From an uncultured Bacilli bacterium (GTDB taxonomy: Bacteria > Bacillota_I > Bacilli_A > RF39 > UBA660), in contig CANQCI010000001.1 of assembly GCA_947589675.1 (NCBI GenBank), positions 7,156-71,155 on the forward strand: a stretch of 64,000 nt of DNA, written 5' to 3'. Below, piece after piece: positions 36,924-63,389 of this stretch (its first letter is position 1; every line of letters starts with the position of its first letter). The position numbers and the translations under genes were made by a program. The notes below the pieces were generated by a model that did not search any database, was not told the DNA's origin, and saw nothing but the letters and a program-made list of their open reading frames with translations.

Positions 36924-37174
36924 ATAATTAACTTATATTAAGAAAATAATATGTCTGATGAAAAAGAAGAAATACTATCTGAGGTTATAATAGAAAACAA
37001 TGATTATATGTCTGAATAGTGATTTAATATCCCAAACAAAGTCTAATATTTATTGTAAAAGACTTTTTAAAGAAGAAATAATGAAAGTTTTAAATAATGA
37101 AAATAAAGTGAAGTTTGCTAATTTAATTAGTAATAAAAGGGTAAAAATAATAAACTGAAAGTAAGGAAGTAAAT

Positions 37175-38530
37175 ATGGATTATGATAAATATGTAGTAAA
37201 AAGTGATAAAGAAGATTTATTATCTTCATTAAAAGCTTTAGATAAAACAATAATTAAGGAAAAGTTAAAAGAATATGAAGTTGATAACATATATAAATTA
37301 AAAGATGCTATTTTAAATAAGTTTGAATTATGGGCAAATTCCTCAAAAGACAATATTTTTGCAAAATTGTATTTTAAAAGATTAATGGAATATGAAAATT
37401 ATCATTGGACTTCGACATTTGGTGATGAAGTAGAATTACTTTTTGTTTTTCTTTATGATGATGATCATTCATACTATGTTCCAACTGAGATAAAAGAAAT
37501 AATTAATAAGGTATTTAAAATTGAACAAGTTGAAGAGTATTGGGAAGAACAAAATTTAATGTTAAATCTTGATGAAATGCAAGTTAAAGATTTAAAGGAA
37601 ATGGGCAAGTTTTTACAAATTGATAAATTAAGCAATAAGTCTAAAATAGAACTTTGTATGATAATATATCGTGCTCTTACTAATCAAGATAAATTAACAG
37701 ATTTAATTGGAAGATTTACCACTAAAGAATTTGATTTGCTAAAATTGTTAATGAAAAATTGTGGAAGAGTTGAAGTTGATGGAGATAGAGAGGAACAAAA
37801 TTTTTTGTGTGAATCAGGATTAGGGCTATTACTTAAAGAAGTTGATGGAGATAGATACTATTTTTGTATATTTAAGGCTAGTTATGATGTTATTAAAAAA
37901 ATAGATTTAGAATCTCTTCAAAAAAAAGTAGAGGATAATACCAAGTTATATGATTTAGTTAGAGCTATGGTTGAATTATATGGAGTAGTTTCTAAAGAAG
38001 ATGTGGAATATTGCTATAATTTTTATTATGGTAATGGAAATAATTTAGATGTTCCTTTTGATTTTTTATTACCTCATAACAGAGATGATAATATATGTAT
38101 ATTATCTAAAAAAGATAATTTATATTTTATTCATAAAGACTTAAATGAAGAATCATTAGATATCATAAACAATATTATAGAAAAACATGAGTATATAAAC
38201 AGAAAACCAATTAAATTAAAAGATTTATTAAAATATTCTAATGATGATTATTATGAAAGAACAGAAGCTAAGAATAAATTAAAGAAATATTTAAAAAAGC
38301 AAAATATAAAACCAGAAATTATTGAAATAATTATTAAGATACTTTCTCGTATATATAGAATGAGTGATAGAAGTGAAATTGAAGATTCAGTTAAAGTGCT
38401 TCATGATTTTAGAGTAGAAGTAAATAAAAAAAATATTCAAGAAATCATCGGTTATTTAACAGAAATATATGATAATACTAGAGTATGGGAAAATAATGGC
38501 TGGACATTTAATGAGATGAAAAATAGTTAA
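37175..38530 (+). CDS. hypothetical protein (451 aa) with an N-terminal ~100-aa module shared with the 35422-35777 gene
   Basis: N-terminal LLSSLKALDK..IKEKL.EY..D.I..LKD ... YYVPTEIKEI aligns with the upstream small gene. The remainder is unrecognised. Confidence 0.5.
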   Translation: MDYDKYVVKSDKEDLLSSLKALDKTIIKEKLKEYEVDNIYKLKDAILNKFELWANSSKDNIFAKLYFKRLMEYENYHWTSTFGDEVELLFVFLYDDDHSYYVPTEIKEIINKVFKIEQVEEYWEEQNLMLNLDEMQVKDLKEMGKFLQIDKLSNKSKIELCMIIYRALTNQDKLTDLIGRFTTKEFDLLKLLMKNCGRVEVDGDREEQNFLCESGLGLLLKEVDGDRYYFCIFKASYDVIKKIDLESLQKKVEDNTKLYDLVRAMVELYGVVSKEDVEYCYNFYYGNGNNLDVPFDFLLPHNRDDNICILSKKDNLYFIHKDLNEESLDIINNIIEKHEYINRKPIKLKDLLKYSNDDYYERTEAKNKLKKYLKKQNIKPEIIEIIIKILSRIYRMSDRSEIEDSVKVLHDFRVEVNKKNIQEIIGYLTEIYDNTRVWENNGWTFNEMKNS

Positions 38531-41451: not shown

Positions 41452-41457
41452 TCTTTT

Positions 41458-42504
41458 TTAATGAATAATATACCAAGCATTTCTTTTAAAATCATAGCCG
41501 ATATTTTTATAAATTTTATTATAATCATGCATATAACGTTCGACACTTCTAAGGGTAAGCGAAAACTTTTTAGCAATTTCCTTAGTCGTAACTATATCCT
41601 TCTTTTTTAAATAAAGATGGATTTTTTCTAAAGATGCTTTTTTGTTTTTGGATAGTTTTATTTTTTTACTATTTAAAAGATATTTATAATAAAGTTCAAG
41701 GATAGAGTCATCATCAGGATATTCTTGATTAACGAAATAAATATTACTATATTTTAAATGATAAAAATTTAGCTTTTTTTCATCCTCGGTAAGTATATAG
41801 ACAAATTGAAAGTGATTAAATAGTTTACGATATTTTTTATCGATTTCCATAATCTCTTTTAAGGGTAACTTATCTTCGCCGATAATCAGTAGAAACCCTT
41901 GTTTCCTTTTTAAATCTTCCAGTTTATCAACTTTCTTTATATACGGAAAATGGAAATGATTTTCCTTAGTAAATTCATCTAGTTCTCTTTTATCGATTAA
42001 AGAATAATATAGGGAACCACAAAGATAAACGTTTCGTGACATTTGGGCTAAATCACTATCTTTAGGATAAATTTCAAATACTTTTAAAGGATAAGATTGT
42101 GCATCAATTTCCTGTAGTAATTCTTGTTGTCTTCTCAAAATATAAAAATATTCAGTCTTTTCATAATCACAAACTATTTTTAAAACTTTAGGTTCAATTT
42201 TTAAAAAAATAATAAAATCACAATCAACAATTTGGGTACTAAATAAAGGCTTTCCTTTTTCAATTTTGATTTGTTCTTCCATTCTTTTTCGTTCATTATC
42301 TGTTACATACCATTTTTCAATTGCCCCAAATTCTTTAATTAGTAATTCATCTAAGACATGATTATAAAGTTTTCCCATAGCCATAAATTGATAAATCTTT
42401 TGGATGGAAGTTTCACTGGCTGATAATACTAAAACTTTTTTATCTTGATTTTCTAAAAGAATTTTTTTTAACCGATTTAACTTTTCATTCATATTTTTCT
42501 CCAA
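41458..42504 (-). CDS. hypothetical protein with a C-terminal helix-turn-helix
   Basis: C-terminal ...DIVTTKEIAKKFSLTLRSVERYMHDY is HTH-like. It lies 6 bp upstream of the 952-aa gene. Confidence 0.45.
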   Translation of the reverse strand: MEKNMNEKLNRLKKILLENQDKKVLVLSASETSIQKIYQFMAMGKLYNHVLDELLIKEFGAIEKWYVTDNERKRMEEQIKIEKGKPLFSTQIVDCDFIIFLKIEPKVLKIVCDYEKTEYFYILRRQQELLQEIDAQSYPLKVFEIYPKDSDLAQMSRNVYLCGSLYYSLIDKRELDEFTKENHFHFPYIKKVDKLEDLKRKQGFLLIIGEDKLPLKEIMEIDKKYRKLFNHFQFVYILTEDEKKLNFYHLKYSNIYFVNQEYPDDDSILELYYKYLLNSKKIKLSKNKKASLEKIHLYLKKKDIVTTKEIAKKFSLTLRSVERYMHDYNKIYKNIGYDFKRNAWYIIH

Positions 42505-42556
42505 AGAAACATCTGTTACTATATATTTATTATAGCATGTCTTGATAATAATGAGG

Positions 42557-43129
42557 TTAAAAATTTTTCATAGTTAAATGATTAATAGAACTTACTTGCC
42601 AATTGGTGAAATTATATTTTTTAAATCCTTTTTCATTCATAAATAAGATAATTTGGGCATTATATCTTTTACTATATTTTTCAATGGTATTTTTTAGACA
42701 TTTAAAACTTTTGGTAGTATTTTTTAATAAATCTTCTAAACTATCAATAATAATCATTTGATATTCATTATCAAAATCAAAGATAATATCAACCCAGTCT
42801 TGTTCGGGAAATACTTTAGAACTACTAATAACTATATTAGCATGTCTAACTTTTTCTAAAGCTAAAATAAAATCTTGGACATTTATTTTTTGTTCTTTTA
42901 AAGCATTGGTTTTAGCTCCCACGGGAAACATATAGCTTTCTATTACTTGAAAATTAATTTTCGAAAGATGCGAGATTAAACGATTAACGTAATAGGAAGT
43001 ACGTAACAAAAAAGATTGCATATAAATAGTTTTTTGTTCTTTGATACCATATAAATCGAGAATATTAATAAGGAGAGGAATCCTTTCTTTAGGATTCCTG
43101 CTATAAATTAAAGATATACGTTCATTCAT
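42557..43129 (-). CDS. hypothetical protein (190 aa)
   Basis: ORF overlapping the upstream gene by 4 nt (ATGA). No motif recognised. Confidence 0.4.
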   Translation of the reverse strand: MNERISLIYSRNPKERIPLLINILDLYGIKEQKTIYMQSFLLRTSYYVNRLISHLSKINFQVIESYMFPVGAKTNALKEQKINVQDFILALEKVRHANIVISSSKVFPEQDWVDIIFDFDNEYQMIIIDSLEDLLKNTTKSFKCLKNTIEKYSKRYNAQIILFMNEKGFKKYNFTNWQVSSINHLTMKNF

Positions 43130-43890
43130 AGCTCATCATCAATTTTCAACACCTTATCTGTTTTTGAATCTAACTCAATCAAAAAAGTTTGCTCAAATAA
43201 ATTAAGGCTAACTGTTAATGATTCTTTATTAACATTTGATACTTTCCCCACCATATCTTTAAAAGCACCATTTAATATTTGCACTTTATCATCTTTCTTA
43301 ATATCTTCAAAAGCTGTGAACTCTTTTGGAATTTCTTCTTTCTTAGTGATTGTTCTTTCTTTAAGATAAGGTCGTAAATCAAATGGTTGGGGTTTTACTT
43401 CTGGGACATCTAATCCATAAAAATATTTATTGATACAAAATATTTCAAAATCTCTTGTTTGATTGGCTAGGGCTACATCATAATCATAAAATTCGAAGAC
43501 ATAATCAATATATTCATCAAGTCCTTCCATGTTTTTGTTTGCTCTTAATGCCTTACATTGGGTAATGATATCTTCATTTTCCTTGAGTAAATCATTTAAT
43601 TCATCGGGGTTATAATGATATTTTTTTGAGTAACTAGCCATCGGCAATTTTGGTAAGGGGGCTTTTACTTTGGCAACTTCTAGTCCATAAAAGTACTTCA
43701 CAATACAATATAAGATATATTTAAATTCCAAATCGTCCTCATGATGCATTGCCATATAAATTAATCGGTTAATATATTGTCTTACTCCTTTCTTCCGATA
43801 ATTCTTTTTTAATTCAAGCATTTGTTCAATAATGTTATCTTTTGACCTAATGATGTTGGCTACCTCCTTCGTTGCTCTAATAGAATACAT
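43126..43890 (-). CDS. KOW-domain protein with an internal tandem repeat (NusG-paralogue-like C-terminus)
   Basis: The C-terminal KDDKVQILNGAFKDMVGKVSNVNKESLTVSLNLFEQTFLIELD matches the NusG KOW pattern. Two internal repeats, KYFYGLEVAKVKAPLPKLP and KYFYGLDVPEVKPQPFDLRP. No obvious NGN domain. Confidence 0.5.
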   Translation of the reverse strand: MYSIRATKEVANIIRSKDNIIEQMLELKKNYRKKGVRQYINRLIYMAMHHEDDLEFKYILYCIVKYFYGLEVAKVKAPLPKLPMASYSKKYHYNPDELNDLLKENEDIITQCKALRANKNMEGLDEYIDYVFEFYDYDVALANQTRDFEIFCINKYFYGLDVPEVKPQPFDLRPYLKERTITKKEEIPKEFTAFEDIKKDDKVQILNGAFKDMVGKVSNVNKESLTVSLNLFEQTFLIELDSKTDKVLKIDDEL

Positions 43891-46333: not shown

Positions 46334-47413
46334 ATGAAAAAAGATACTTATGTAAATTATATAAAATATACTTTAAGCACCTATAATAAAGCAAATAAGA
46401 GAGAATTAATAAAGTTATATAAAGATGCTAATTTAGTAAAGGAAAAAAATGCTTATCCAACTATATTTGATGATGATTTAGTGGATATAGATTATACTAA
46501 TATGGATAATACTATTATTGATTGTATAAAAAAGCATGATGAGGCAATTGAAATATATGAAAAATATCAATTTACAAAAGCATATAAATATGCCGTTTTA
46601 TTTAAATGTTCTGATTTTGAAAAATTGTTATTAAAAATAGATGAAATCGCTGAATATGAATATAATAATACCAATGTAAAACTATTTGATGAATTACAGC
46701 AGCCCACTAAAATAATATATAATAATGACAGTATATTATTGTTTAATAAAAAGTTTGAAGCTGTACACCCTCAAACTGGGGAAGAATTATTATTACATTA
46801 TCCATTATTAGCCATAGTTCACAAAGAAAGTAAACTTGTTGAATTTAGATTTGATACAATAAAAAGGCTGTTTACTGATGGAGATAGAGACCAAAATATA
46901 TATGTGAAATTGATTGATGAATTAATAAATTATTTTAAAACAACGTTCGACAGTGATTTGTTGGCTATTAATTTAGATTTTATGATTGAAATAACAAAGG
47001 AGGAATCTAATAAAAATATTAAATTATTATCGCAATACATGTTTTTAAAAGATGGTGGTAAAGCCCAATTAACAGTGGGCAATAATGAAGAATATGTGTT
47101 ACCAATTATAGGAGAATTAAAAAACATAATCAATGAATTAAGAGAAGAACTAGACAAAAATGTCAAAATTAAAGACGCTTTAGAACAGTTTGTATATGAA
47201 AAAGAAGAAACGACAGATTATCCTTGGATTGAAGTTTTATTTTTGGATGAAGAGGGAATAAAAACTAGAAATAATCATGTAAAATTTACATTTAACTATA
47301 TGAACAGAAATTATTGCTTAATAACATATTATTATAATGATACATTAATTGAAATGGAGAGGATGAATAATGTCACAAGATTTATTGGAAAAAATATTGA
47401 AAGACAAAATTGA
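46334..47413 (+). CDS. hypothetical protein (359 aa)
   Basis: First gene of a tightly overlapping three-gene operon. No motif recognised. Confidence 0.45.
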   Translation: MKKDTYVNYIKYTLSTYNKANKRELIKLYKDANLVKEKNAYPTIFDDDLVDIDYTNMDNTIIDCIKKHDEAIEIYEKYQFTKAYKYAVLFKCSDFEKLLLKIDEIAEYEYNNTNVKLFDELQQPTKIIYNNDSILLFNKKFEAVHPQTGEELLLHYPLLAIVHKESKLVEFRFDTIKRLFTDGDRDQNIYVKLIDELINYFKTTFDSDLLAINLDFMIEITKEESNKNIKLLSQYMFLKDGGKAQLTVGNNEEYVLPIIGELKNIINELREELDKNVKIKDALEQFVYEKEETTDYPWIEVLFLDEEGIKTRNNHVKFTFNYMNRNYCLITYYYNDTLIEMERMNNVTRFIGKNIERQN

Positions 47414-47714
47414 TTTAAATCTTGATGAAGCGATAAAATTTTTAATGAAATTTAAAAAAAATGAATATATTTATCCAAGTACAATTAAAAGAAATTTAAA
47501 GATAGATGATAAAAAAGTTTATGAGGTATTAACACTATTGGAAAATGCTGGTATTATAAAAATGTATTATGAATTTTTTTGCTACAATTGTAATAATTCA
47601 AAAGGTTTGTATACCTATTTTAATGAATTAAACGATGAATTAGTTTGTGATTATTGTGAGAATAAACTAAATAGTAATGATAATATTAAAATAGTGTATA
47701 AGGTGATTAAATAA
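47370..47714 (+). CDS. small winged-helix plus C4 zinc-ribbon protein (114 aa)
   Basis: ...KVYEVLTLLENAGIIKMYYEFFCYNCNNS...CDYCENKL. Overlaps the upstream gene by 44 nt. Confidence 0.45.
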   Translation: MSQDLLEKILKDKIDLNLDEAIKFLMKFKKNEYIYPSTIKRNLKIDDKKVYEVLTLLENAGIIKMYYEFFCYNCNNSKGLYTYFNELNDELVCDYCENKLNSNDNIKIVYKVIK

Positions 47715-47716
47715 GC

Positions 47717-48412
47717 ATGAATGATATAGATAGTATAACAACGGCGTTTAAAAATTTGGGTAATGAAATATCTTATAAAAAAATATGCGAATTTACCGAT
47801 AATCAAAGAAAAGAATATAAAATTCTTTTAGCTAATTTAGAAAAAGTAAATTCAACAAAACAATCATCAAGCGAAAAAGGAAAGGCACTTGAAGATATTG
47901 CTTCATTTGTTTTAAAAACAAGCAATATTTTTGATGTGTATCAGAATATATTGACTTCAACAAATGAATTAGACCAATTAGTTAGAACTAATAATAAAGG
48001 TAAAATTTTATTTTCGAATGGGATAATTGATAAAAGACTAAAAAGTTTTATATGTGAATGTAAAAATCATAAAGAAAAAATTTCTGTAACTTATGTTGGT
48101 AAGATATGCAGTTTATTATCTACAACAAAAAATAAAATTTGTATTTTATTTTCTTACTATGGAGTTTCTGGTAAAGAATGGAAAGATTCTGTTGGATTAA
48201 TAAAAAAGTTTTATTTGTCAAAAGAAAATGAAGAAGATAGATATTGTATAATAGATTTTAATATAAAAGATTTTATAAGTATAGAAAAAGGTAACAATAT
48301 TCTTCAAATTATAGAAGATAAAATTTTGGCTTTACAAAATGATACTAATTACATATATTTGTTAAGTCCACATGAATCGGAAAAGAAAGTATTAGAATTA
48401 CAAGAAATATAA
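47717..48412 (+). CDS. restriction-endonuclease-fold (Mrr_cat-like, PD-(D/E)xK) protein
   Basis: GKALEDIASFVL ... TNELDQLVR ... FICECKN ... ILFSYYGVSGKEW fits the Mrr catalytic-domain pattern (E...D...ExK). Confidence 0.5.
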   Translation: MNDIDSITTAFKNLGNEISYKKICEFTDNQRKEYKILLANLEKVNSTKQSSSEKGKALEDIASFVLKTSNIFDVYQNILTSTNELDQLVRTNNKGKILFSNGIIDKRLKSFICECKNHKEKISVTYVGKICSLLSTTKNKICILFSYYGVSGKEWKDSVGLIKKFYLSKENEEDRYCIIDFNIKDFISIEKGNNILQIIEDKILALQNDTNYIYLLSPHESEKKVLELQEI

Positions 48413-48506
48413 TCGGATATATTTCTTTTTTTATTGACTGAAATATTTTTCTTCCCTTATAAGCCAAAATATGTTAAGATAGAAAAATTAAAAAGGGGGA
48501 AAACTG

Positions 48507-49970
48507 GTGAAAATTTATGATAAGCTAATAAATAGAATTAGTGAAACAAAATATTTAAATGCCGAAAATTCCTATCGCTATCGACCCATTATGCGGGTAT
48601 TTTATAATCATTATATTAAGTTAGAATATTGGCTTTATAAAGAAGATATTTATAATGAATTAAAAGATAATGCCATATTTAGTGAGTATACTTTAGATGA
48701 TTGCGAACGAGATTTAGATATATTAACTGAATGGTTAAGTTTAACAAGACTTCAAGATACCAAAAATGCTTTATCACTTCCAGAATTTAAAAATAAAAAA
48801 TTTCGTTATCAAATGACTGAGTATGCTACCGAGATTGAAAGATTAGTCATATCTTTAGAAGAATTGGAAATCAAGGCTTCTTCATTGGAACCTAAATTGT
48901 TTGATCGCTTAAAAGATACAATTGCTAAATTAGAAAATACTATTTCTTTAAGTCCTGATGAAGTTAACGAAATATGGAATGATTTAAATGATAATTTTAC
49001 AAAACTAAATGAAAGTTATCAAGATTTCTTAAAGAAATTTAATGAACCTAAAACTGAGGAGTTATTTCAAGGAGAAGCATTTTTAAAATATAAAACGGAA
49101 ATAATAAGTTATTTAAGAAATTTTATTCAAAGTTATCAACAAAATATAAATAAGATAAAATATAGTATAAACAAAATTGATGAAGAAATAAAATTAGATT
49201 TTATCAATAAATTAGTAAGATATAATGAACAAAATCCCTTATTAAATCAAAATTTTGATTTTGGTTATTTTAAAGAATTAAATTTTGATAAACTAACTAA
49301 TATTTTGAAATGGTTTGTTAGTAATGATTCTACCTTAAGTGAAGGTCAAAAATTAATGGATACAACCGATAATATTATTGTTTCTCTTACCAAGTATGCC
49401 AATTCTTTAATTGAACTGCGAGGGAATATGACTAGCCGCAAGGAGGAATATAAACATCTTTGTCAACAATTTGATAAAATAAGTAACATGGATGAAGCTC
49501 ATAGACTTGCTGCGGTTATCTTAGGTATAAGTAATGTTAGACATTTTTTAGGAAATTCTAATATTACGACTGATACAATTGTAAATACTTATGATAATCC
49601 ACCTCTGGAAATAATTTTATCATCAAGAACCAAAAAACGAAAAGAAAAGATTGATTTAAAACCTATTGAAGATAAAACGCTGGCGAAAAGAAAAATTTTA
49701 GAGGAATATCGTTTAGAGCAAGAAAAAAATAAAGAAATATTAAAGAGTTTGATAAAGAATAAAAAAATAATTTTAGAAAATGAGAGACAATTAACGAAAA
49801 TTGAACGCCGGTATATTCAAAAATTATTAGCATCATCGCTAACACATAAAGAAACGGAATTTGGGCTAAGTTATAAAATCAAGAAAAAAGAGGGAACATG
49901 TAAAATAGTATCGGAGGATGGAATATTTTATATGCCAAGTTTAGATATAGAATTTATGGGGGATATATGA
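48507..49970 (+). CDS. jetA: Wadjet JetA (TIGR02677/DUF3375 family, kleisin-like)
   Basis: The N-terminal NAENSYRYRPIMRVFY motif is characteristic of TIGR02677. 487 aa. GTG start after an AAGGGGGAAAA RBS. Confidence 0.75.
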   Translation: MKIYDKLINRISETKYLNAENSYRYRPIMRVFYNHYIKLEYWLYKEDIYNELKDNAIFSEYTLDDCERDLDILTEWLSLTRLQDTKNALSLPEFKNKKFRYQMTEYATEIERLVISLEELEIKASSLEPKLFDRLKDTIAKLENTISLSPDEVNEIWNDLNDNFTKLNESYQDFLKKFNEPKTEELFQGEAFLKYKTEIISYLRNFIQSYQQNINKIKYSINKIDEEIKLDFINKLVRYNEQNPLLNQNFDFGYFKELNFDKLTNILKWFVSNDSTLSEGQKLMDTTDNIIVSLTKYANSLIELRGNMTSRKEEYKHLCQQFDKISNMDEAHRLAAVILGISNVRHFLGNSNITTDTIVNTYDNPPLEIILSSRTKKRKEKIDLKPIEDKTLAKRKILEEYRLEQEKNKEILKSLIKNKKIILENERQLTKIERRYIQKLLASSLTHKETEFGLSYKIKKKEGTCKIVSEDGIFYMPSLDIEFMGDI

Positions 49971-51136
49971 TAGATAAACATACAAAAGAATTAGAATATT
50001 TATTAAATAATTTTTGGTGTCTTAAAGATCAAAATCCTAGCTTATATTGGGAAATAAAAAATAATTTAGATTATTATAAAGACTTTGTCCAAACGAAATT
50101 AGGAAGTGTGCTTATTGTTAACGATCGTTTAATAAAATTAGAAAAGATTCCCACTATTCCTAAGGCTTATATGGGAATTAATGCTTTTGGGCAACCTTTA
50201 GAATATGTTCTTTTATTTCTTATTTTATTATTTTTAGAAGATAAACCAAAATCTAAACAATTTATTCTTTCTAATTTAATTGATTTTATTGATAATACGG
50301 CAAGAGGATTAGAGCTTGATCATTTACCGGATTGGAATATATATCAACATCGGAAATGTTTAGTTAATGTGATGCATCATTTGGAAGATATGGGGATTAT
50401 TAAGGTAGTTGACGAAATCTATAATTTTTCGGAGGATAAACAGGCTGAGGGGTTATATGAATCAACTGGGATATCAAATTATTATATTCGCAGATTTCAA
50501 AATAATATTTTAAATTATGAAACAATTGAAGATTATTTAAATGATGAATATACTAAGTATACCGATAAGGATATAAAAAGAATGAAAATTTATCGAAATT
50601 TATTATATTCACTCGTTATTTATCCAGAAGAGTTAACGGAGTTTGAATGGGATTACTTACGCAAATTTCGGGGAACTATAAGTAATGAATTAAGTAAATA
50701 TACGGATGGGGAATTAGAAATCACTAAAAATATGGCATTACTTTTATTTCCTATGGAAGGACGTCAAAGTTATGATTTTCCTAATTCTAAAGCTATATGT
50801 GATATTATTTTATTAATTAATAATTATCTTTTAGAATTAGTAGATAAAGGGGAATTACAATTAAATCAACAAGAAATAATTGTTATATCAGAAGAATATT
50901 TCAAAAGAATTATTAAAGAAGTTAGAAATGAATCAGGTTTATATTTTAGTAAATATTATAAAGATTTATCTTTTACTAGTTTTTATCAAGATATAGTAGA
51001 ATGTATGCAGGAATATGATTTTCTGAAAATAAATGATTTAGAAGTTAAAATATATCCTATGGTTTCAAAATTAATTGGGTATATACCGCAAGATCCTTTA
51101 CAACAATTAGATTTATTTGGGGGTAATTATGAATAG
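49967..51136 (+). CDS. jetB: Wadjet JetB (TIGR02678-like)
   Basis: 389 aa. Its start overlaps the jetA stop (ATGA) and it lies between jetA and jetC. The assignment rests on position and size. Confidence 0.6.
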   Translation: MIDKHTKELEYLLNNFWCLKDQNPSLYWEIKNNLDYYKDFVQTKLGSVLIVNDRLIKLEKIPTIPKAYMGINAFGQPLEYVLLFLILLFLEDKPKSKQFILSNLIDFIDNTARGLELDHLPDWNIYQHRKCLVNVMHHLEDMGIIKVVDEIYNFSEDKQAEGLYESTGISNYYIRRFQNNILNYETIEDYLNDEYTKYTDKDIKRMKIYRNLLYSLVIYPEELTEFEWDYLRKFRGTISNELSKYTDGELEITKNMALLLFPMEGRQSYDFPNSKAICDIILLINNYLLELVDKGELQLNQQEIIVISEEYFKRIIKEVRNESGLYFSKYYKDLSFTSFYQDIVECMQEYDFLKINDLEVKIYPMVSKLIGYIPQDPLQQLDLFGGNYE

Positions 51137-54100
51137 ATATAAAGTAACAAAAATTGGTTTATTAAATTTTTGGTTATATGATGAAGAAGAATATGATTTT
51201 TATGGAGGAAAGTTAATTTTAAGAGGAGCAAATGGCAGTGGAAAGTCTGTTACCATGCAATCTTTTATTCCTTTGATTTTAGATGGCAATAAAAGTCCTG
51301 AGCGATTAGATCCATTTGGTTCTAAAGAACGAAAAATTGAGGATTATGTTTTAGGAATTGATGATTATTTACAAAAAGAAGAATCGACAGCTTATTTATA
51401 CATGGAAACTTATAATTCTTCTTTAAATAAATATTTAACGATTGGTTTAGGTTTTCGAGGCAGAAAAGGTCGTCCTGTGGAATCTTGGGGTTTTGCCCTA
51501 AAAGATGGTGCCCGAATAGGACATGATTTTTATTTATATAAAGACCCTGTTAATAAGATTCCTATTAGCAAAAATGAATTAAAAAGTCGGCTAGGAACCA
51601 TAAATGAATTTTGGGATAATATGAAAGATTATAAAGCTATGGTTAATCGGCTTCTTTTTGGTTTTCCTAATTTAGATGCCTATGACGAGTTTATTAAACT
51701 TCTTTTACAATTACGAAGTAATAAATTATCAAAAGATTTTAAACCAACTAATTTAATTAATGTTTTAAATTCTGTGCTACAGCCTTTAACAGAAGAAGAT
51801 TTACGCCCTTTAGCCGAGGCTATTGAACAAATGAATAAAACCAAAATAGACATTGAGTTATTAGAAAAAAGTCAAAAATCAGTGCATGATTTTTTGAAAG
51901 TATATAATAATTATAATGAATCTATTCTTTTAGATAAAACTCGTCGTTATAAAGAAGTTCAAGATTTTTATAATAATTTATTGAATGATATAAAGATAAA
52001 AAATAACTTTTTAAAAGAATGTTCTACTAATTTAGAAAATAATAAAAAACGTTTTAATAAAGTTATCGAGGATATCGAGGTTAATAAAGAGAAGAAAGAA
52101 CAATTAGATGATAGTGATTTAAAACAAAAAATTGAATCATTAGCATCTTTAGAAGACAATATTAAAAATCTGGCAAATAAAATCGAGGAATTAGAGCAAA
52201 AAAATGATACTTTGCAACAAGATAAGTTAGCTTTAAATAATAAAATTTCCACAAGTGAAGATGAAATATATAAATTAAGAAAAGAAATAAAAGAAGTTTT
52301 AATTGATTTAAAAGATTTAAGTAATGATGCTTATAGTGGAAAATTAGTTAATTATGTGGAAATGCTTGAAAATGATTTATTTAGTGTTTCAATAGATGAT
52401 TTATTAATTTCTTTAAAAAACTATAAGGAAAAAGTAACTAAGGTTTTAAAACTATTAGAAGAGGAAAATGATATTAATTTAGAAAGTGAAAAGCAAAGAA
52501 TTGAATTTGCCAAATTAACTCAAGAATATCAAGAATTAGAAAAACAAATTATGTTAGCTCAAAAGAATTTGACCGAGGCTATAATGGCATGGCAAGAAGA
52601 TTTTATTAATAAGGAACATAACAATAATTATTTAAAATTAACCGATTATGTTAAAAAGCAAATTTTGGAATTAATGAATGATTATACCAAGGCAAATTTT
52701 GAAAAAGTTGTAAATATTTATAAAGATTATGCTCAAGATTTAATAAATGGCGTTATCAAAGAAAATTTAATATTGCAAAATAAAATAGATTCAAAGAAGT
52801 TAGAATTAAGCACTTTAGAAGAGGAATATCATAAATTAGAAAATCAAGATGATTTAGAAATTCCCTCTTTAAATAAAGATATTGCTGAAATTTTAAAGAA
52901 TAACAAAATAGAAAATATTCCTTTATATAAATGTTTAGAATTTAAAAATAATATTTCTGATACGGAAAAGAATAATATTGAATCTTTATTACTAGATTTA
53001 AATATTTTAAATGCTTTAGTTATTAAACCAGAAGACATAGACAAATTAGATAATATTAAAACGCCAATTATTTATTTAACTAAATCAACAAAGAAAAAAG
53101 ATAATATCTTAAAATATTTTAATATTGTAATTCCCAATGGTTCTTCTATTAAAGAAAGTTATTTAAAAGAAATTTTAGAATCTATTAGTATCAATCCCGA
53201 TGACCTGGTGGCAATTGATCCTAAGGGGAAAGCCAAAATGGATATGCTTAATTTTCTTCCTGATTATACTTATAAACAAAAGTTTATTGGCTTTTTAAAA
53301 AGATTAGAATTAAAAAAGAAACAATTAGCCGAATTACAAGAAAAAATTACCTTAAATAAGGAAGAAATTAATAATATCAATAGTTTAATTGTTAGTAATG
53401 AAAATAAAATAGAAATTTTAAGAAAAGAACAAAATAATATCCCAAATAATGATTTTATAAAAGGAATAGAGAATAATATTGAAGATTTAAAACGTAATTT
53501 AAATTGGACAGATAAAAAACAAAAAGAAGTTGAAGAAAGTTTAAAAATAATAGATAATAATTTGAAAAAAGTTAAAACCGAAATTATGAATAATAAGGAA
53601 GGTTTAGTAATTCCTTTAAATATTGTTACTTATCAACAAACTTTAACTGTTTTAAATAATATTAATGAAATTGTGCAAAGTTTTCATGTTACATTAAAAT
53701 CTTTAGATAATAAATTAGAAATTCAAAAAAGTTATCAAGAACGCTTAGAAGATGTTACGAATAATATTGAATATTCTTTAGATGAACAACGAGAAAAAAA
53801 TAAAGAATTACAAGTAATTAAAGCGAAAAAAGCTACGATTGAAGAGATATTAGAAACTAAAGAATTTAAGGAACAAAAAAATCAACTTTTAGAAATTGAA
53901 AAAAACTTACATGATTTAACCTTAGAAAAAGATAGTTTAATTAAGGATATTGCTAAATTAGAAAATGAACTTGAACATCAACAAGAAAAAATAAATGAAT
54001 TAAATAATTTAAAAGAAAAAAAGGAAAAAGAAGCTAATGCTTATCAAGATATATTTTTAAGAGAATATAAATTAGGTTATGTTTATCAAGAAGATATTAC

Positions 54101-55205
54101 GAATATAAGTGATACTGTTAAAAGAATTATAAATGCGGGTAAAGATAAAAAAGAAATTGATTTAAATTCGTTAGCAAATAGTTTTTTTACAGCTTATAAT
54201 AAATATTCTTTAGAATTAAATGATTATTATTTTCAAATAATTACTATCTTTGAGGATTATGAAATAGAAGATAAAAATATAGCGAAAATTTATCAAGAAA
54301 ATAAAAGAATAGATATAACAACCTTGTATCAAGGAATAAAATTAAATATCTTTGAATTAAAAGAAAAAATAGATAATGATATTTTAGCCAATAAAGATTT
54401 AATTAATGAACAAGATAGACGGTTGTTTGAAGAAATATTATTAAATACGGTTGGGGAAAAAATAAGAAATAAAATTAATGATTCTAATGAATGGATTAAA
54501 AAAATAAATGATATTATTGCGGAGATGCAAAAAGAAAGTGCCCTTAGTTTTAAATTAGTTTGGAAAAGCATTAATGCCGAAAGTGAAGATGAGATTGATA
54601 CCAAAGAATTAGTGCGAATCTTAAAAATGGATCCCCATATGTTAAAAGAAGTTGATGCCGAAAAATTAACTAATCATTTTCGCAGTAAAATTAAAAAAGC
54701 CGAAGAGTTATATCAAGATTCATATGCTTCTTTTACCAAAATTATTGAAGAAATTTTAGATTATCGTTCGTGGTTTACTTTTCAATTATGTTATCAAAGA
54801 AAAGGAAATGAATTTAAAGAATTAACTGATAAAACCTTTGCTAAGTTTAGTGGGGGTGAAAGAGCGAAGAGTATGTATATTCCTTTGTTTGCCAGTGTAT
54901 ATGCTAAGTTATTTATGGCTAGGAGTGATTCTTTAAGATTAATTGCTTTAGATGAAGCTTTTGCGGGAGTAGATGAAGAAAATATTCGGGAAATGTTTGG
55001 TATTTTAAAAAAATTAGATTTAGATTTTATTATCAATTCCCAAGTTTTATGGGGCGATTATGATACAATTGACGATTTATCTATGTGTGAATTAATAAAG
55101 CCTCCCAATTCTTTAGCAGTTTCTGTTGAAAGATATCGCTGGAATGGTAAATATAAAGAAATAATTGTTGATAGAAAAAAATATAATGAGGAACATAATG
55201 CATAG
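51129..55205 (+). CDS. jetC: Wadjet JetC, SMC-like ABC ATPase (TIGR02680 family)
   Basis: N-terminal Walker A GANGSGKSVTMQS, ~900 aa of coiled coil, then a C-terminal signature/Walker B ...FSGGERAKSMYIPLFA ... LIALDEAFAGVDEEN. ~1358 aa. Confidence 0.85.
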   Translation: MNRYKVTKIGLLNFWLYDEEEYDFYGGKLILRGANGSGKSVTMQSFIPLILDGNKSPERLDPFGSKERKIEDYVLGIDDYLQKEESTAYLYMETYNSSLNKYLTIGLGFRGRKGRPVESWGFALKDGARIGHDFYLYKDPVNKIPISKNELKSRLGTINEFWDNMKDYKAMVNRLLFGFPNLDAYDEFIKLLLQLRSNKLSKDFKPTNLINVLNSVLQPLTEEDLRPLAEAIEQMNKTKIDIELLEKSQKSVHDFLKVYNNYNESILLDKTRRYKEVQDFYNNLLNDIKIKNNFLKECSTNLENNKKRFNKVIEDIEVNKEKKEQLDDSDLKQKIESLASLEDNIKNLANKIEELEQKNDTLQQDKLALNNKISTSEDEIYKLRKEIKEVLIDLKDLSNDAYSGKLVNYVEMLENDLFSVSIDDLLISLKNYKEKVTKVLKLLEEENDINLESEKQRIEFAKLTQEYQELEKQIMLAQKNLTEAIMAWQEDFINKEHNNNYLKLTDYVKKQILELMNDYTKANFEKVVNIYKDYAQDLINGVIKENLILQNKIDSKKLELSTLEEEYHKLENQDDLEIPSLNKDIAEILKNNKIENIPLYKCLEFKNNISDTEKNNIESLLLDLNILNALVIKPEDIDKLDNIKTPIIYLTKSTKKKDNILKYFNIVIPNGSSIKESYLKEILESISINPDDLVAIDPKGKAKMDMLNFLPDYTYKQKFIGFLKRLELKKKQLAELQEKITLNKEEINNINSLIVSNENKIEILRKEQNNIPNNDFIKGIENNIEDLKRNLNWTDKKQKEVEESLKIIDNNLKKVKTEIMNNKEGLVIPLNIVTYQQTLTVLNNINEIVQSFHVTLKSLDNKLEIQKSYQERLEDVTNNIEYSLDEQREKNKELQVIKAKKATIEEILETKEFKEQKNQLLEIEKNLHDLTLEKDSLIKDIAKLENELEHQQEKINELNNLKEKKEKEANAYQDIFLREYKLGYVYQEDITNISDTVKRIINAGKDKKEIDLNSLANSFFTAYNKYSLELNDYYFQIITIFEDYEIEDKNIAKIYQENKRIDITTLYQGIKLNIFELKEKIDNDILANKDLINEQDRRLFEEILLNTVGEKIRNKINDSNEWIKKINDIIAEMQKESALSFKLVWKSINAESEDEIDTKELVRILKMDPHMLKEVDAEKLTNHFRSKIKKAEELYQDSYASFTKIIEEILDYRSWFTFQLCYQRKGNEFKELTDKTFAKFSGGERAKSMYIPLFASVYAKLFMARSDSLRLIALDEAFAGVDEENIREMFGILKKLDLDFIINSQVLWGDYDTIDDLSMCELIKPPNSLAVSVERYRWNGKYKEIIVDRKKYNEEHNA

Positions 55206-56430
55206 TTATACCAAATATTTTAAAGAACAAATCGGTTTTAAAAGATTTATGGAAGCTTTATATCAAAAATATCTTTCTTTAGGTAAAATAACCGGAAAAA
55301 TATCTTTAGAAAGACTTACCAAGGAAGAAGCTCATGTTTTATCGAAACTTTTTGGCTATAATTATCAAGAAGCAACGGATTTTAAAATTAGTGTTTTAAC
55401 TTTTACTAAAGTTATGGCAGCCTCTAAATATGAAGATTTTGATTTAAATACTTTAGTCGAAGAATATTTAGGGGTTAAATTAGTTTCTAAAAAAGAAACA
55501 AAAGAAAAAGAAAGAGAAGAAGAAAGGGCATTTTACCAAAATATATTAGACGAAAGTAAAGCTAGTAAATGGTTATTAAATGTAATTGAAACCAAAGAAA
55601 ATCCTTATTCTTCTCTGCATAAAAGATATTTAAAAGAAAAAGAGTTATTGAAAAAGGAGTTAGTAAATGTATTAGCTTTACTAAATAACTTACCGAAAGA
55701 AAGAACTTTAATTTCGATTTATGCTGCCAACATTACCATGGATCCTCATTATTTAGATTTAGATAATAATCATTGTCTGTTGTTTTTCTCCGGCTTAGCT
55801 TATTTTAGTCACTGTTCTTATCCTTTAACTAGGGAAGATAAAATAAAATTATTATCTTTAAATAATATAGAAATAGATAATTTATCTAATTTTGTCATAA
55901 CGTATAATTTGCATACTAATAGAGAATATTTAAATAACTTTTATCAAACAAAAGAACCTGTTATTTTGAATATTCAAAATATTTTAAATATTGATTATAT
56001 AGAGGGAATAAATCAAAAAATAATAATTGTGGAAAACCCGTCAATATTAAATGAAATTATAGCACGAAAGATGAATGTAAGTGTTATAGTTTCTGGGGGA
56101 TTTGCCAATACAGCTGTTTATTTACTTTTAGATAAAATCAATAATAATCAATTATTTTATAATGGGGATTTTGATCCCGAAGGATTACTTATTGCTCAAA
56201 AATTAAAAGAAAAATATCCTAATTTACAATTATTTTGTTATCAAAAAGAAGATTATGAAGCATCATTTTCCAAAAATGAAATTAGTAATGCGAGAATTAA
56301 TAAATTAAAAGGTATAAAAGAAAAAGATTTAATGGTTATAAGTAATTTAATTAAAACTAAAAAGAATGTTGCTTATCAAGAAAATAATAAAGAAAGAATT
56401 ATGGAATTTATTAAAAAATTATATTGGTAA
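55198..56430 (+). CDS. jetD: Wadjet JetD (TIGR02679; C-terminal Toprim-like DUF2220)
   Basis: C-terminal IIVENPSILNEI ... VIVSGGFANTAVYLLLDKI ... FYNGDFDPEGLLIAQKL matches the Toprim DxD core. The start is taken at ATG 55198 with a GAGGAA RBS; the ORF track opens at TTG 55165. Confidence 0.75.
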   Translation: MHSYTKYFKEQIGFKRFMEALYQKYLSLGKITGKISLERLTKEEAHVLSKLFGYNYQEATDFKISVLTFTKVMAASKYEDFDLNTLVEEYLGVKLVSKKETKEKEREEERAFYQNILDESKASKWLLNVIETKENPYSSLHKRYLKEKELLKKELVNVLALLNNLPKERTLISIYAANITMDPHYLDLDNNHCLLFFSGLAYFSHCSYPLTREDKIKLLSLNNIEIDNLSNFVITYNLHTNREYLNNFYQTKEPVILNIQNILNIDYIEGINQKIIIVENPSILNEIIARKMNVSVIVSGGFANTAVYLLLDKINNNQLFYNGDFDPEGLLIAQKLKEKYPNLQLFCYQKEDYEASFSKNEISNARINKLKGIKEKDLMVISNLIKTKKNVAYQENNKERIMEFIKKLYW

Positions 56431-56447
56431 GATTGATAAAATACTAT

Positions 56448-56490
56448 GGCTATCAACCAGTACTACCATTGGAATTGATAGCCTTTTTTT
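56448..56490 (+). terminator. rho-independent terminator after jetD
   Basis: GGCTATCAA-18 nt-TTGATAGCC followed by T7. Confidence 0.5.
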
Positions 56491-56877: not shown

Positions 56878-57714
56878 GTGAATAAGAAAAAAGAAGAAAT
56901 AACTAGAAAAGATTTAAAAAAAGATTTTTTAAAACAATCGATAATCAGAATAGATTATGATTATATGTTCGATGAATATATAGAAGAAACTATGAAAAAA
57001 ATTGATGATTTTTTGGGTGATAAAGGATATACTATAAAAAATAATTTTATGTCTAAATTTGGGCTAAAAGTAGATATTGATAAGTTGAATGATGACGTAA
57101 ACACTAATATAATGGATACCATAAATGTAGAATCAGACAAAAGAGAGAAGTTTTTTTCGTTTGTTAATGAGAACAAAAATATAAGGATTGATATTACTCG
57201 AGAATATTCGGCTATTACTGTCGAATACGTTGAACATATTCATTTTGATGAGATTTATGATATTTTTAATGAGATAGTTAAGGAATTACGAAATGCAAGA
57301 AGAAATCTGCAAATTAAAAGATTAGGATTAAGGAAAATTAATATTTTTATGATGAAAGATATTTCTAAAATAAATAATTTTTTTGAAGAAAATACTTTCA
57401 ATTACTCTGATAAAAATCTATCATCATATCAATTTATTGGTAAGAACTCTTTAGTTAATTATAAATGTGGGGATTATCTTGTAAATCAAATAGCAAATAT
57501 TGCCCAAGGATATTTGCAAACAGATGATTCTTCTCAACTTTTGTATCAATTAGTACTTGATTTTGATATTTATATTGAAAATCTTACCAATCAAGAAATA
57601 TTAAAAGATATGAATGATAAACTGTTTGAAATATATAAAAATTCTTTGACAGAAAGTTTTTTAAATGAATTATTAATTGAAAATTTTAATAATGAGGAGA
57701 TTTTTAAATTATGA
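56878..57714 (+). CDS. hypothetical protein (278 aa)
   Basis: GTG start with a GGTGA RBS. First gene of a three-gene operon. No motif recognised. Confidence 0.45.
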   Translation: MNKKKEEITRKDLKKDFLKQSIIRIDYDYMFDEYIEETMKKIDDFLGDKGYTIKNNFMSKFGLKVDIDKLNDDVNTNIMDTINVESDKREKFFSFVNENKNIRIDITREYSAITVEYVEHIHFDEIYDIFNEIVKELRNARRNLQIKRLGLRKINIFMMKDISKINNFFEENTFNYSDKNLSSYQFIGKNSLVNYKCGDYLVNQIANIAQGYLQTDDSSQLLYQLVLDFDIYIENLTNQEILKDMNDKLFEIYKNSLTESFLNELLIENFNNEEIFKL

Positions 57715-57920
57715 TTTTTACAATGAATAATGCCGGAGTAACGACAAATGAAATTTATAATAAAACGAAAATAGTTCTTTCACAATCTGTGAATAATTCT
57801 AATTATAATTCTAAAATAAATAGTAAAGTTTTTAAACCGGTAACAAGTATTTCATTTTCCTTAAGTTCATCAAACAAAAATGTTAACTATAAAAAGGTAA
57901 AACAAACTAAAAATGGATAA
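57711..57920 (+). CDS. small low-complexity S/N-rich ORF (69 aa), uncertain
   Basis: Overlaps both neighbours (ATGA at each end). It may be a real linker gene or an artefact. Confidence 0.25.
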   Translation: MIFTMNNAGVTTNEIYNKTKIVLSQSVNNSNYNSKINSKVFKPVTSISFSLSSSNKNVNYKKVKQTKNG

Positions 57921-58923
57921 TAGTTTTTTTCTCAAAAATAATTTAATAGTACGTATATATACAGTAGGATTTAATCCAGAAGGGGAATCAATCTTATTTA
58001 CAATAAATGATGGTGATTACATTTTATTTTCGGGATTAATTGATTGCTTCATTCCTGAAAGTAATTATTTATTAAAATTATTTGTTGATTTAAAAATAAA
58101 GAAATTGAATTACTTGTGTATAACTCATCCAGATTTTGATCACTGTATTGGCATTCAAAATATTATTGCAAAAATAGATAAAAATACGAAAATAGTGGTA
58201 CCTAGTAAAATATTTGACTTTATGGATCAATATGATTCACGAGTTAAGGAATCTTTAGAAGTTTTAAGAAAATTATTAAGCATGAACTCAAATAATAAAA
58301 GAAAACCAATTTTTAATACAGTAAGTGATAATTGTGATGTAGTTGATAATTGGAATTTTATTGATAGCCGAGGTAAGATTAGCGAGCTTAAAATTAAGAC
58401 TATCACACCCATCGCAAATATTATTGAACGATATGCATACAAGCAATCTATGCAAGATATTAAAATTGAACATAACTATTTTTCAATCATTAACCTTATT
58501 CAAATTGGTGATGTTAAAATATTATTAACTGGTGATGCAATGAACGATAGCATAAAGGAAGCGTTTAATAATCTTACAAAATTTGGAAGTGAGTTTTTTA
58601 ATTCTAAAATAGATTTTGTAAAAATACCCCACCATACTTCTATTGGTTCAAATTTATTATTGAGTAAAATAAAAGAAAATGAAAAAGGAATTGGGGTTTC
58701 GGTAACAACTGTTTTTAAAAGTAGTAATTTGCCAAACTATGCTTTATTTACAGATTATAATGCTTATTCTGATATTTCTTTTTGTACCTGTTCGGAAAAA
58801 TCAGAAATAGGGAAAAAAGGTATAGTATTATATGAAGCCGATATTACTAGTTCCCAAAAAAGAGTATATCTTGCTGGTGCTGCAGTAAATTTTAAAAATT
58901 ATAAAATGGAAATTATCCATTAA
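57913..58923 (+). CDS. MBL-fold metallo-hydrolase (336 aa)
   Basis: CITHPDFDHCIGI (HxDxDH variant) and later LLTGDA ... KIPHHTS. Confidence 0.55.
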   Translation: MDNSFFLKNNLIVRIYTVGFNPEGESILFTINDGDYILFSGLIDCFIPESNYLLKLFVDLKIKKLNYLCITHPDFDHCIGIQNIIAKIDKNTKIVVPSKIFDFMDQYDSRVKESLEVLRKLLSMNSNNKRKPIFNTVSDNCDVVDNWNFIDSRGKISELKIKTITPIANIIERYAYKQSMQDIKIEHNYFSIINLIQIGDVKILLTGDAMNDSIKEAFNNLTKFGSEFFNSKIDFVKIPHHTSIGSNLLLSKIKENEKGIGVSVTTVFKSSNLPNYALFTDYNAYSDISFCTCSEKSEIGKKGIVLYEADITSSQKRVYLAGAAVNFKNYKMEIIH

Positions 58924-61887: not shown

Positions 61888-62940
61888 ATGAAAGTATTGT
61901 TAAATGTAACCTTGGGTGAAATTGCAAATAAAATTAATAGACAAATTGAAGTAGATGAAAATATAAGTTTAAGAGACTTATGTGAATATATAATTGTTTC
62001 TATGAATGGAAGTAAAATTCCTATTTATGAATTTGTAGATGGTAATATTACATATAATCCTTATTTTATTGAAGAGACTAATAGGGATAAATATATCGAT
62101 AAAATTTTATTTAAAGATTTACATTTAAAAAAAGATAAACAATTTACTTTAGAATATAATTTTGATAAAAATTATTATTTTGAAATAGTAGTTGATGATA
62201 TTTATGAATCACAAGATAAATCAGAATTTAAAGTAATATCTGGAAAAGGCTATGGAATAATAGATAATAAATCGCTATATGATTTAATGGCAATATTTAA
62301 GTATTCAGAAGATAGATTACTAAAAACTGAAAAAGAATATTTAAAAAAAACATTTGATTGTGATGAATGTAATAATAATATAACTAATTATATAGCTGAT
62401 AGAAAAGAAATGTTTTTACCTAAAAGATTTGTTTTTAATGTTTCCCTATATGGTTTTGAAAAAGAAATTAAAAGAAAAATTATTGTAGATAATGATATAT
62501 CAATTAGTGATTTTTGTAAATGTGTGATTGTCGCAATGAATGGTGATTTATCACATTTATATGGGATTAAAATGGGGAAAGAATATTTAAATGAATGGTA
62601 TGATGATTTAGGATTATTTTACCTTAATTTAAAAGAAAAACAAAAATTAAAAATTATTTATGATTGGGGTGATAATTGGTTATTTAATTTAACATTAAGT
62701 AAGATAATCCCAATCGATGATTATGGCGATGAGGATTTTCAAGTAATATCTGGCAAAGGCTATGGAATAATTGATGATGCTGGAGGAGTATGGAGACTTC
62801 GAGATATATTTGATGGTACAGATACTAGTTGGGGTATTTACGATATTAATGATTTTGATTTAAATGAATGCAATGAAAATATAAGAAAATATGCCGTAAG
62901 AAGTAGTATAAAATACAATAGAATAAATCCATCTAATTAA
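61888..62940 (+). CDS. hypothetical protein built from two tandem copies of a ~170-aa domain (possibly pRiA4b ORF3-like)
   Basis: The repeat units share ...I.VD.NIS..D.C..I.V.MNG ... and F[KQ]VISGKGYGIID. Confidence 0.45.
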   Translation: MKVLLNVTLGEIANKINRQIEVDENISLRDLCEYIIVSMNGSKIPIYEFVDGNITYNPYFIEETNRDKYIDKILFKDLHLKKDKQFTLEYNFDKNYYFEIVVDDIYESQDKSEFKVISGKGYGIIDNKSLYDLMAIFKYSEDRLLKTEKEYLKKTFDCDECNNNITNYIADRKEMFLPKRFVFNVSLYGFEKEIKRKIIVDNDISISDFCKCVIVAMNGDLSHLYGIKMGKEYLNEWYDDLGLFYLNLKEKQKLKIIYDWGDNWLFNLTLSKIIPIDDYGDEDFQVISGKGYGIIDDAGGVWRLRDIFDGTDTSWGIYDINDFDLNECNENIRKYAVRSSIKYNRINPSN

Positions 62941-62963
62941 GTTTGATAAACTAAATATAAATT

Positions 62964-63389
62964 ATGAAAGTGAGTGAAGTTAAAATGAAAGTAAATTTAG
63001 ATAATGTTATAAGTATGTTAGAATTAGTGAATATTGCAGATGCCCTAGCATATTTCAATAAAAAAACAAAGAGATTTAGTCATATAAGTAAATACTCAGA
63101 TATGACTGACGATGAAAAAGCAAAGATGTTGGAGAATTGTATAGAACTTCCTACTAAAAAGGATATTGATGAAGAACATGGTATGGTGGAAGACTTTATA
63201 AAGGGGATAAAAGATGTTGAGCTTTATAATCAATTACAAGCTACCCTTAATGAGCAGGAGGCTTTTAGAAGATTCAAAACCACATGTATTAATTTAGGGA
63301 TATTTGGAGATTGGTATGGGTTTAGAGAAAAAAAGTATAAAGAAATTGCCATCGAATGGTGTAATAAAAATAATATTAAATTTGCATAG
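62964..63389 (+). CDS. UPF0158-family protein
   Basis: ...EQEAFRRFKTTCINLGIFGDWYGFREKKYKEIAIEWCNKNNIKF matches the conserved C-terminal signature of UPF0158. Confidence 0.5.
   Translation: MKVSEVKMKVNLDNVISMLELVNIADALAYFNKKTKRFSHISKYSDMTDDEKAKMLENCIELPTKKDIDEEHGMVEDFIKGIKDVELYNQLQATLNEQEAFRRFKTTCINLGIFGDWYGFREKKYKEIAIEWCNKNNIKFA

Follow-up and report, generated by a model that had tools for sequence, protein, structure and literature searches.

Locus and operon organization

We analyzed a 64,000-nt stretch of DNA (hereafter the window; ~26% guanine–cytosine (GC), 26.6%) from contig CANQCI010000001.1 of an uncultured Bacilli bacterium of the RF39 lineage, in which an earlier reading of the sequence (the original prediction) had placed a complete Wadjet (JetABCD) anti-plasmid system. 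All positions below are in window numbering. The open reading frame (ORF) list contains four successive long ORFs on the + strand between 48507 and 56430, all of them intact under translation table 11, and the locus comprises the following features:

48492..48499, + strand: Shine–Dalgarno-like sequence AAAGGGGG, 7 nt 5' of the jetA GTG, read from the sequence
48507..49970, + strand: jetA, 487 aa, GTG start; kleisin subunit, DUF2397/TIGR02677
49967..51136, + strand: jetB, 389 aa, ATG start; tandem-KITE subunit, DUF2398/TIGR02678
51129..55205, + strand: jetC, 1358 aa from ATG 51129; SMC/MukB-like ATPase
55198..56430, + strand: jetD, 410 aa from ATG 55198; predicted Toprim nuclease effector
56448..56490, + strand: intrinsic-terminator-like hairpin GGCTATCAA...TTGATAGCC, then T7, 18 nt 3' of the jetD stop

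The longest forms of two of these ORFs begin at upstream in-frame TTG codons, giving 1362 aa for jetC (51117-55205, TTG 51117) and 421 aa for jetD (55165-56430, TTG 55165). Inspection for ribosome-binding sites (RBSs) showed that GGGGG precedes the jetC ATG at 51129 and that GAGGAA precedes the jetD ATG at 55198. Profile and homolog alignments of JetC and JetD start at the residues encoded by these ATG codons, and in public gene calls made independently on identical contigs JetC is likewise 1358 aa and JetD 410 aa long. Based on the RBSs, the alignment starts and the public gene calls, ATG 51129 and ATG 55198 were chosen as the better-supported starts, and initiation at TTG 51117 is less likely. 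The original prediction had described four co-oriented, overlapping genes of 487, 389, ~1358 and ~410 aa, in agreement with the ORF list, RBSs, alignments and public gene calls.

The operon spans 7,924 bp. jetA and jetB overlap by 4 nt (ATGA start/stop), and jetB/jetC and jetC/jetD by 8 nt each, an arrangement that points to a compact, translationally coupled operon. The hairpin at 56448-56490 has a predicted RNA folding energy of -17.7 kcal/mol (z = -5.06), and none of 200 shuffled sequences was equally stable. A simple terminator scan made no call for this hairpin, probably owing to its interrupted stem. An alternative genetic code, in which UGA is read as Trp as in some Mycoplasmatota, was ruled out: the jetA stop codon is the TGA of the ATGA overlap, and no ORF is interrupted under table 11.

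Assignment to type II Wadjet

The original prediction had proposed PADLOC as a check, and all four proteins matched type II profiles in this database: JetA to JetA2 (1.6e-142, 473.7 bits), JetB to JetB2 (1.4e-103, 345.1 bits), JetC to JetC2 (E = 0, 1159.4 bits) and JetD to JetD2 (2.1e-104, 348.1 bits). Each match spans essentially the whole profile. With hidden Markov model (HMM) E-values down to 0, these matches are not due to chance. The best scores against type I or III profiles were marginal, reaching at most 95 bits for JetC1 and 27 bits for JetD1.

Pfam and NCBIfam likewise matched all four proteins. In Pfam, JetA matched DUF2397 (4.2e-109), JetB matched DUF2398 (1.4e-69) and JetC matched SbcC_Walker_B (4.4e-23); JetD matched DUF3323 in its N-terminal half (3.4e-37) and DUF2399 (1.8e-15) together with JetD_C (2e-07) in its C-terminal, Toprim half. 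In NCBIfam, JetA exceeded the trusted cutoff of TIGR02677 (238 against 165.85 bits) and JetC that of TIGR02680 (627 against 462.85 bits). The equation of the locus with the TIGR02677–TIGR02680 gene set now called Wadjet thus stood for all four families as far as homology is concerned, but TIGR02678 and TIGR02679 matched below their trusted cutoffs, a point to which we return below. Each of JetA–JetD has an HMM match and the Toprim acidic residues of JetD are present, the two features on which the original prediction had staked its assignment. Gene content, gene order, intactness and subtype are established here, as are the motifs and the modelled JetD fold described next.

Motifs and structural homologs of JetA, JetB and JetC

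A scan of one genome per species yielded 80 related loci. JetA, JetB and JetC each matched a single pair of Protein Data Bank (PDB) entries, 9QE0/9QE1, the type II system of Neobacillus vireti LMG 21834 (nvJET-II). JetA aligned over aa 5-480 with chain E of 9QE0, N. vireti JetA (9.8e-59). The N-terminal YR.IMRVF signature named in the original prediction was found as YRPIMRVF at aa 25-32 (nt 48579-48602), and the form YRPIMRxF is kept in most of 59 related loci.

JetB aligned nearly without gaps over aa 5-371 with aa 13-376 of the 389-aa N. vireti JetB (9QE0 chain D; 5.8e-51). The alignment covers both KITE lobes of nvJetB (5-205 and 206-388), and JetB is accordingly predicted to be a tandem KITE with four winged-helix domains in one chain.

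JetC aligned over aa 5-1351 with aa 8-1362 of N. vireti JetC (9QE0 chain A; 7.9e-172). Its ATPase motifs are Walker A GANGSGKS (aa 33-40, nt 51225-51248), the signature FSGGE (aa 1240-1244, nt 54846-54860), Walker B LIALDE (aa 1271-1276, nt 54939-54956) and the D-loop AFAGVD (aa 1277-1282, nt 54957-54974), and they are kept in 62-76 related loci. These motifs bear out the description of JetC as an SMC-like ATPase with an N-terminal Walker A and a C-terminal signature and Walker B. The ~900 aa between them, which had been described as coiled coil, are not coiled coil throughout: alignment to N. vireti JetC places a central hinge at ~aa 590-690.

Fold and catalytic residues of JetD

As no structure of a type II JetD has been deposited, JetD was compared through profiles and its predicted fold. 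The Toprim-like GDFDPEG motif expected from the original prediction lies at aa 323-329 and includes D324 and D326 (nt 56167-56175). E279, within IIIVENPS, is encoded at nt 56032-56034, and Q394-E395-N396 (the QEN motif) at nt 56377-56385. E279, D324, D326 and E395 are invariant in an alignment of 27 JetD sequences. The Toprim acidic residues are also conserved in the related loci, but these loci were retrieved by the same motifs, so that their conservation there is not independent evidence for JetD.

An AlphaFold2 model built from the homolog alignment had a mean predicted local distance difference test (pLDDT) score of 93.1. Foldseek comparison of this model with the PDB gave the following leading matches, below which small Toprim proteins were ranked:

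8b7f, Corynebacterium glutamicum MksG: 4.4e-06
7til, Pseudomonas aeruginosa JetD: 1.7e-05
8uru, Spo11: 6.1e-05
9o0g, Methanosarcina mazei topoisomerase VI-A: 8.8e-04

The strand at 274-278 of the model leads directly into E279, and the strand at 318-322, the third of a beta–alpha–beta array, leads directly into the DxD; this placement is the canonical Toprim arrangement. The metal ligands of MksG are E236 and D279, and MksG has a further acidic pair, E349/E351 (PMC10123090). The +70 spacing in MksG equals that from D324 to E395 in JetD, and E395 is probably the counterpart of the MksG acidic residue.

Conservation and genomic setting

Nearly all of the 80 related loci lie in metagenome-assembled genomes (MAGs) of uncultured gut bacteria classed as Bacilli, 'Tenericutes' or Erysipelotrichaceae; among them is Candidatus Faecisoma, listed by NCBI under Mycoplasmatota incertae sedis. 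The nearest JetD proteins are 56-57% identical and JetA proteins reach 67%. Where enough upstream DNA was available, jetA-B-C-D was colinear in 56 of 58 related loci, and the median span of the cassette in relatives is 7,912 bp, against 7,924 bp in the window. The two exceptions are decayed copies. One (L047, 9683-11260) has a full jetD preceded by a ~90-aa C-terminal remnant of jetC, with neither jetA nor jetB; the other (L028, 8470-9267) retains a truncated jetD alone (residues ~166-401). These remnants show that Wadjet loss occurs in this lineage.

When 17 flanking proteins (10 upstream and 7 downstream) were compared with the 80 loci, none recurred beside jetABCD save PRiA4_ORF3 and UPF0158. 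Both are encoded at 61888-63389 (+), as a PRiA4_ORF3-domain protein of 350 aa (1e-33) and a UPF0158 protein of 141 aa. The PRiA4_ORF3 family is represented close to jetABCD in 5 of the 80 loci, which makes it the sole recurrent neighbour, and UPF0158 is found in 1 of 80. Since jetA-B-C-D is colinear and the flanking genes are not conserved, the four jet genes constitute the whole of a self-contained system in variable surroundings.

A search for repeats around the cassette returned low-identity, AT-rich chance matches only; neither direct nor inverted repeats indicative of an insertion were found at its flanks, and the 64-kb window contains no tRNA genes and no Rfam families. The GC content of the operon (24.4%) is near that of the window, so that base composition gives no hint of recent transfer. 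We also considered, and rejected, that the window stems from a plasmid or phage: its left part carries genes of chromosomal type, among them those for HtrA, for a SpoVB/MurJ-like flippase and for an M23 peptidase, which places the jetABCD locus on a chromosome, and JetD-II is rare on plasmids. In PLSDB, JetD-II homologs were found on six plasmids only, from Bacillus, Priestia and Alicyclobacillus, which range in size from 149 kb to 1.08 Mb. Confinement to plasmids of at least 149 kb is consistent with a size-limited anti-plasmid system that would target its own replicon if carried on a small circle.

Comparison with characterized systems

The N. vireti system has the same gene set and order as the operon described here, with JetA, JetB and JetC of 500/389/1371 aa against 487/389/1358 aa. 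Type II systems are distinguished by an enlarged tandem-KITE JetB (~388 aa) and an enlarged JetC (~1370 aa) whose coiled coil runs long from elbow to hinge and whose hinge is channel-less. In both systems JetB is one long polypeptide with both KITE lobes and the ATPase motifs are the same; a long coiled coil and a hinge like those of N. vireti JetC are predicted for the present JetC from its length and end-to-end alignment. N. vireti is a cultured member of the Bacillaceae, whereas the present operon comes from an uncultured gut Bacilli/Mycoplasmatota-like MAG of 24-27% GC; similarity between the two is moderate, and the coiled coil is poorly conserved. Because the system is type II, the right comparator is N. 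vireti LMG 21834 and not Bacillus cereus Q1, which had been suggested earlier. The B. cereus Q1 Wadjet is reportedly the type I exemplar of Doron et al. 2018.

A kleisin, a KITE protein, an SMC protein and a Toprim nuclease are also common to type I Wadjet/MksBEFG (Escherichia coli GF4-3, P. aeruginosa PA14, C. glutamicum), and the JetD fold is nearest to MksG 8b7f and JetD 7til, with which it shares the metal-binding Toprim E and DxD. The SMC–kleisin–KITE architecture is shared more widely with MukBEF/MksBEF, and in the N. vireti structure the type II geometry and channel-less hinge are MukBEF-like (bioRxiv 10.1101/2025.03.10.642339). We considered whether the operon might encode an MksBEF/MukBEF-type chromosome-organizing condensin, or a type I or III Wadjet, given that JetABC is distantly homologous to MukFEB/MksFEB and that JetC1 and JetD1 profiles match weakly. 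Those condensins have no dedicated nuclease subunit, whereas here jetD lies in the operon with its Toprim site intact and its start translationally coupled to jetC. The scores for type II profiles exceed those for types I and III by hundreds of bits. The 389-aa JetB fits the type II tandem KITE, not the 242-aa JetB of type I, which dimerizes. On these sequence comparisons, a condensin or a type I/III Wadjet is effectively refuted. Type I differs further in its shorter JetC, and the JetD described here has no sequence-level PDB match to type I JetD.

The JetD model also matches topoisomerase VI subunit A and Spo11, with which the layout of the Toprim acidic triad is common. The partner of Top6A is Top6B, whereas that of JetD is an SMC complex, and JetD is reportedly without the conserved catalytic tyrosine of topoisomerase CAP domains (bioRxiv 10.1101/2025.03.10.642339).

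Proposed mechanism and alternative readings

The N. vireti type II system has been reconstituted: JetABC and JetD cleave DNA circles but not linear molecules, at random sites; cleavage needs ATP, JetABC, JetD and Mn2+; and plasmids of up to 26.7 kb are handled in vitro, while activity wanes at ~50 kb and beyond in vivo (bioRxiv 10.1101/2025.03.10.642339). Circle-sensing extrusion and cleavage is common to types I and II, JetABC and JetD are not interchangeable between them, and type II needs Mn2+ (bioRxiv 10.1101/2025.03.10.642339). In Clostridium cellulovorans, deletion of the native Wadjet raised plasmid uptake ~1e5-fold (PMC12287153).

From homology to the reconstituted system, we propose the following mechanism. 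Each motor unit would combine the JetA kleisin with a single tandem-KITE JetB and a pair of JetC SMC ATPases, and motor units would dimerize via the JetA N-terminus. Once loaded on DNA, the complex would extrude loops at the expense of ATP. If the DNA is a small closed circle, the motors would collide and stall, a signal of both circular topology and small size, and the stalled complex would recruit and activate a JetD dimer. The JetD Toprim site (E279, D324, D326 and probably E395) would then cut the DNA at a sequence-independent position, and the linearized plasmid would be degraded by host nucleases while the large host chromosome is spared. As every catalytic element is intact, the same small-circle sensing and JetD cleavage most likely operate here. 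By analogy with the published systems, the complex in the RF39-lineage host would extrude loops, sense the circularity and size of DNA, depend on manganese and restrict plasmids.

Taken together, we consider it very probable that jetABCD forms an intact operon here and that its products make up a type II Wadjet system that acts in this way. Several observations weigh against this reading. First, JetB and JetD missed the NCBIfam trusted cutoffs, with 110.4 against 124.65 bits for TIGR02678 (1e-31) and 123.2 against 196 bits for TIGR02679 (1.3e-35). Homology is clear, yet strict equivalog membership fails, which probably reflects lineage divergence; these sub-cutoff scores account for public names such as 'TIGR02679 domain-containing protein'. 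Second, the closest relatives are 57-67% identical. Third, JetD retrieved nothing relevant from PDB sequences, whether searched singly or as a profile of 27 sequences. Since no PDB sequence matched, JetD is tied to characterized JetD and MksG by its Pfam JetD_C match (2e-07) and by a similar fold with low TM-scores (template modelling scores) of 0.33-0.37, as expected for a flexible two-domain protein. Finally, a sigma-70 promoter scan was uninformative in this AT-rich DNA of 24% GC (68 sites found against 72 expected), and no promoter could be assigned.

The promoter result would also fit an operon that is intact in sequence but silent or decaying, either unexpressed or carrying inactivating substitutions outside the known motifs, and decay is seen in the family in L047 and L028. 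Against this, the four ORFs are full length relative to the profiles and the N. vireti proteins, all catalytic motifs are intact, and the start/stop overlaps, RBSs and terminator are preserved. Moreover, an identical JetD was assembled independently from several samples. We regard a silent or decaying operon as very unlikely.

An intact type II system could also have a different or broader target, such as circularized phage genomes or other circular mobile elements, or a lineage-specific size threshold. The host lineage is apparently small-genomed (one related circular MAG is 1.54 Mb), the proteins are moderately similar to those of N. vireti, and the JetD N-terminal domain differs between Wadjet types (bioRxiv 10.1101/2025.03.10.642339). 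The surrounding genes are uncharacterized and non-conserved, and some match PHROG families without assigned function. However, types I and II, although structurally different, show the same circle and size sensing in vitro (bioRxiv 10.1101/2025.03.10.642339), the sequence gives no hint of an added sensor or effector domain, and no extra gene is conserved beside the cassette. Such a shift in target or threshold is likewise very unlikely. We thus retain the reading of a type II Wadjet directed at small circular plasmids, a moderately divergent member of a well-characterized defence system that standard defence-annotation tools would call.

Neighbouring genes

The original prediction had also taken the operon to anchor a defence island. 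A PADLOC scan covered 28 more ORFs of the window, to the left and right of jetABCD. Just one further gene of the window was assigned to defence with confidence; it encodes an AbiD/Abi_2 protein of 309 aa at 27977-28906 (+) (PADLOC AbiD 3.8e-55; Pfam Abi_2 1.1e-38). This gene is directly upstream of the HtrA-like protease gene and lies 20 kb upstream of Wadjet, with HtrA and other chromosomal-type genes in between. Among the genes tested from ~37 kb to the window end, jetABCD alone gave a confident defence match. Weak or partial PADLOC matches were SWIM/PDC-S62 at 35922-36923, PDC-S10 at 34488-35411, WYL at 41458-42504 (E = 0.005) and an MBL-fold protein at 57913-58923, and most flanking ORFs received no assignable function from PADLOC, Pfam, NCBIfam or PHROGs. 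The island claim thus retains AbiD upstream and weak MBL-fold matches downstream, but no other tested flanking gene gave a significant defence-profile match, and the label is weakly supported.

Just 3' of jetD, three tightly packed genes occupy 56878-58923 (+) and encode a TIGR04255-family protein (278 aa, 3.9e-14), a 69-aa ORF and the MBL-fold protein (57913-58923; 336 aa, with an HPDFDH motif). The last weakly resembles defence MBL effectors: RTasMBL (1.2e-15), PDC-M48B (4.8e-13), LmuA (6.5e-12) and Avs1a. These three genes, which are not conserved beside Wadjet in relatives, form a possible uncharacterized defence module.

Immediately 5' of jetA, 47370-48412 (+) encodes a weakly wHTH-like protein of 114 aa and, next to it, a protein of 231 aa in which a possible PD-(D/E)xK pattern (ELDQLV ... 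ECK) was read by eye. The 231-aa protein matches two PHROG families without assigned function, phrog_18586 (1.5e-15) and phrog_6350 (8.4e-15); it gave no significant Pfam match (chance level, E ~0.02-0.03) and no PADLOC match. Further upstream, a 359-aa protein at 46334-47413 matches phrog_17559 (9.2e-11).

On the - strand, a four-gene cluster at 38593-43890 encodes proteins of 952, 348, 190 and 254 aa. In the 952-aa protein, an MBL/beta-CASP (RNase J-like) domain at the N-terminus is followed by a long C-terminal part without a family; the 348-aa protein has a weak C-terminal HTH/WYL-like match, and the 254-aa protein a weak KOW/antiterminator-like C-terminus. At 35922-38530 (+), the gene for a SWIM zinc-finger protein of 333 aa (Pfam SWIM 6.9e-09; PADLOC PDC-S62 6e-11, confined to the first 100 aa) precedes that for a 451-aa protein without a family match.

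It is conceivable, though on balance unlikely, that the unannotated clusters flanking jetABCD (114+231 aa; TIGR04255/69-aa/MBL; 952-aa) include undescribed defence systems or, in a weaker variant, that this type II Wadjet clade has lineage-specific target or size properties. If undescribed defence systems were indeed present there, the region would amount to a genuine defence island in a little-studied lineage of gut Bacilli with small genomes.

Implications

Beyond annotation, the significance of this locus is small. It lies in a variable part of the chromosome, and the unannotated genes around it are sensible places to look for new defence genes. More broadly, uncultured gut Bacilli/Mycoplasmatota-like lineages of low GC content commonly carry type II Wadjet, usually in intact form (80 loci, with 56 of the 58 testable ones complete). 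Should such organisms be brought into culture, the system would be a predictable barrier to small plasmids, and its deletion would be a rational step in their domestication, as in C. cellulovorans.

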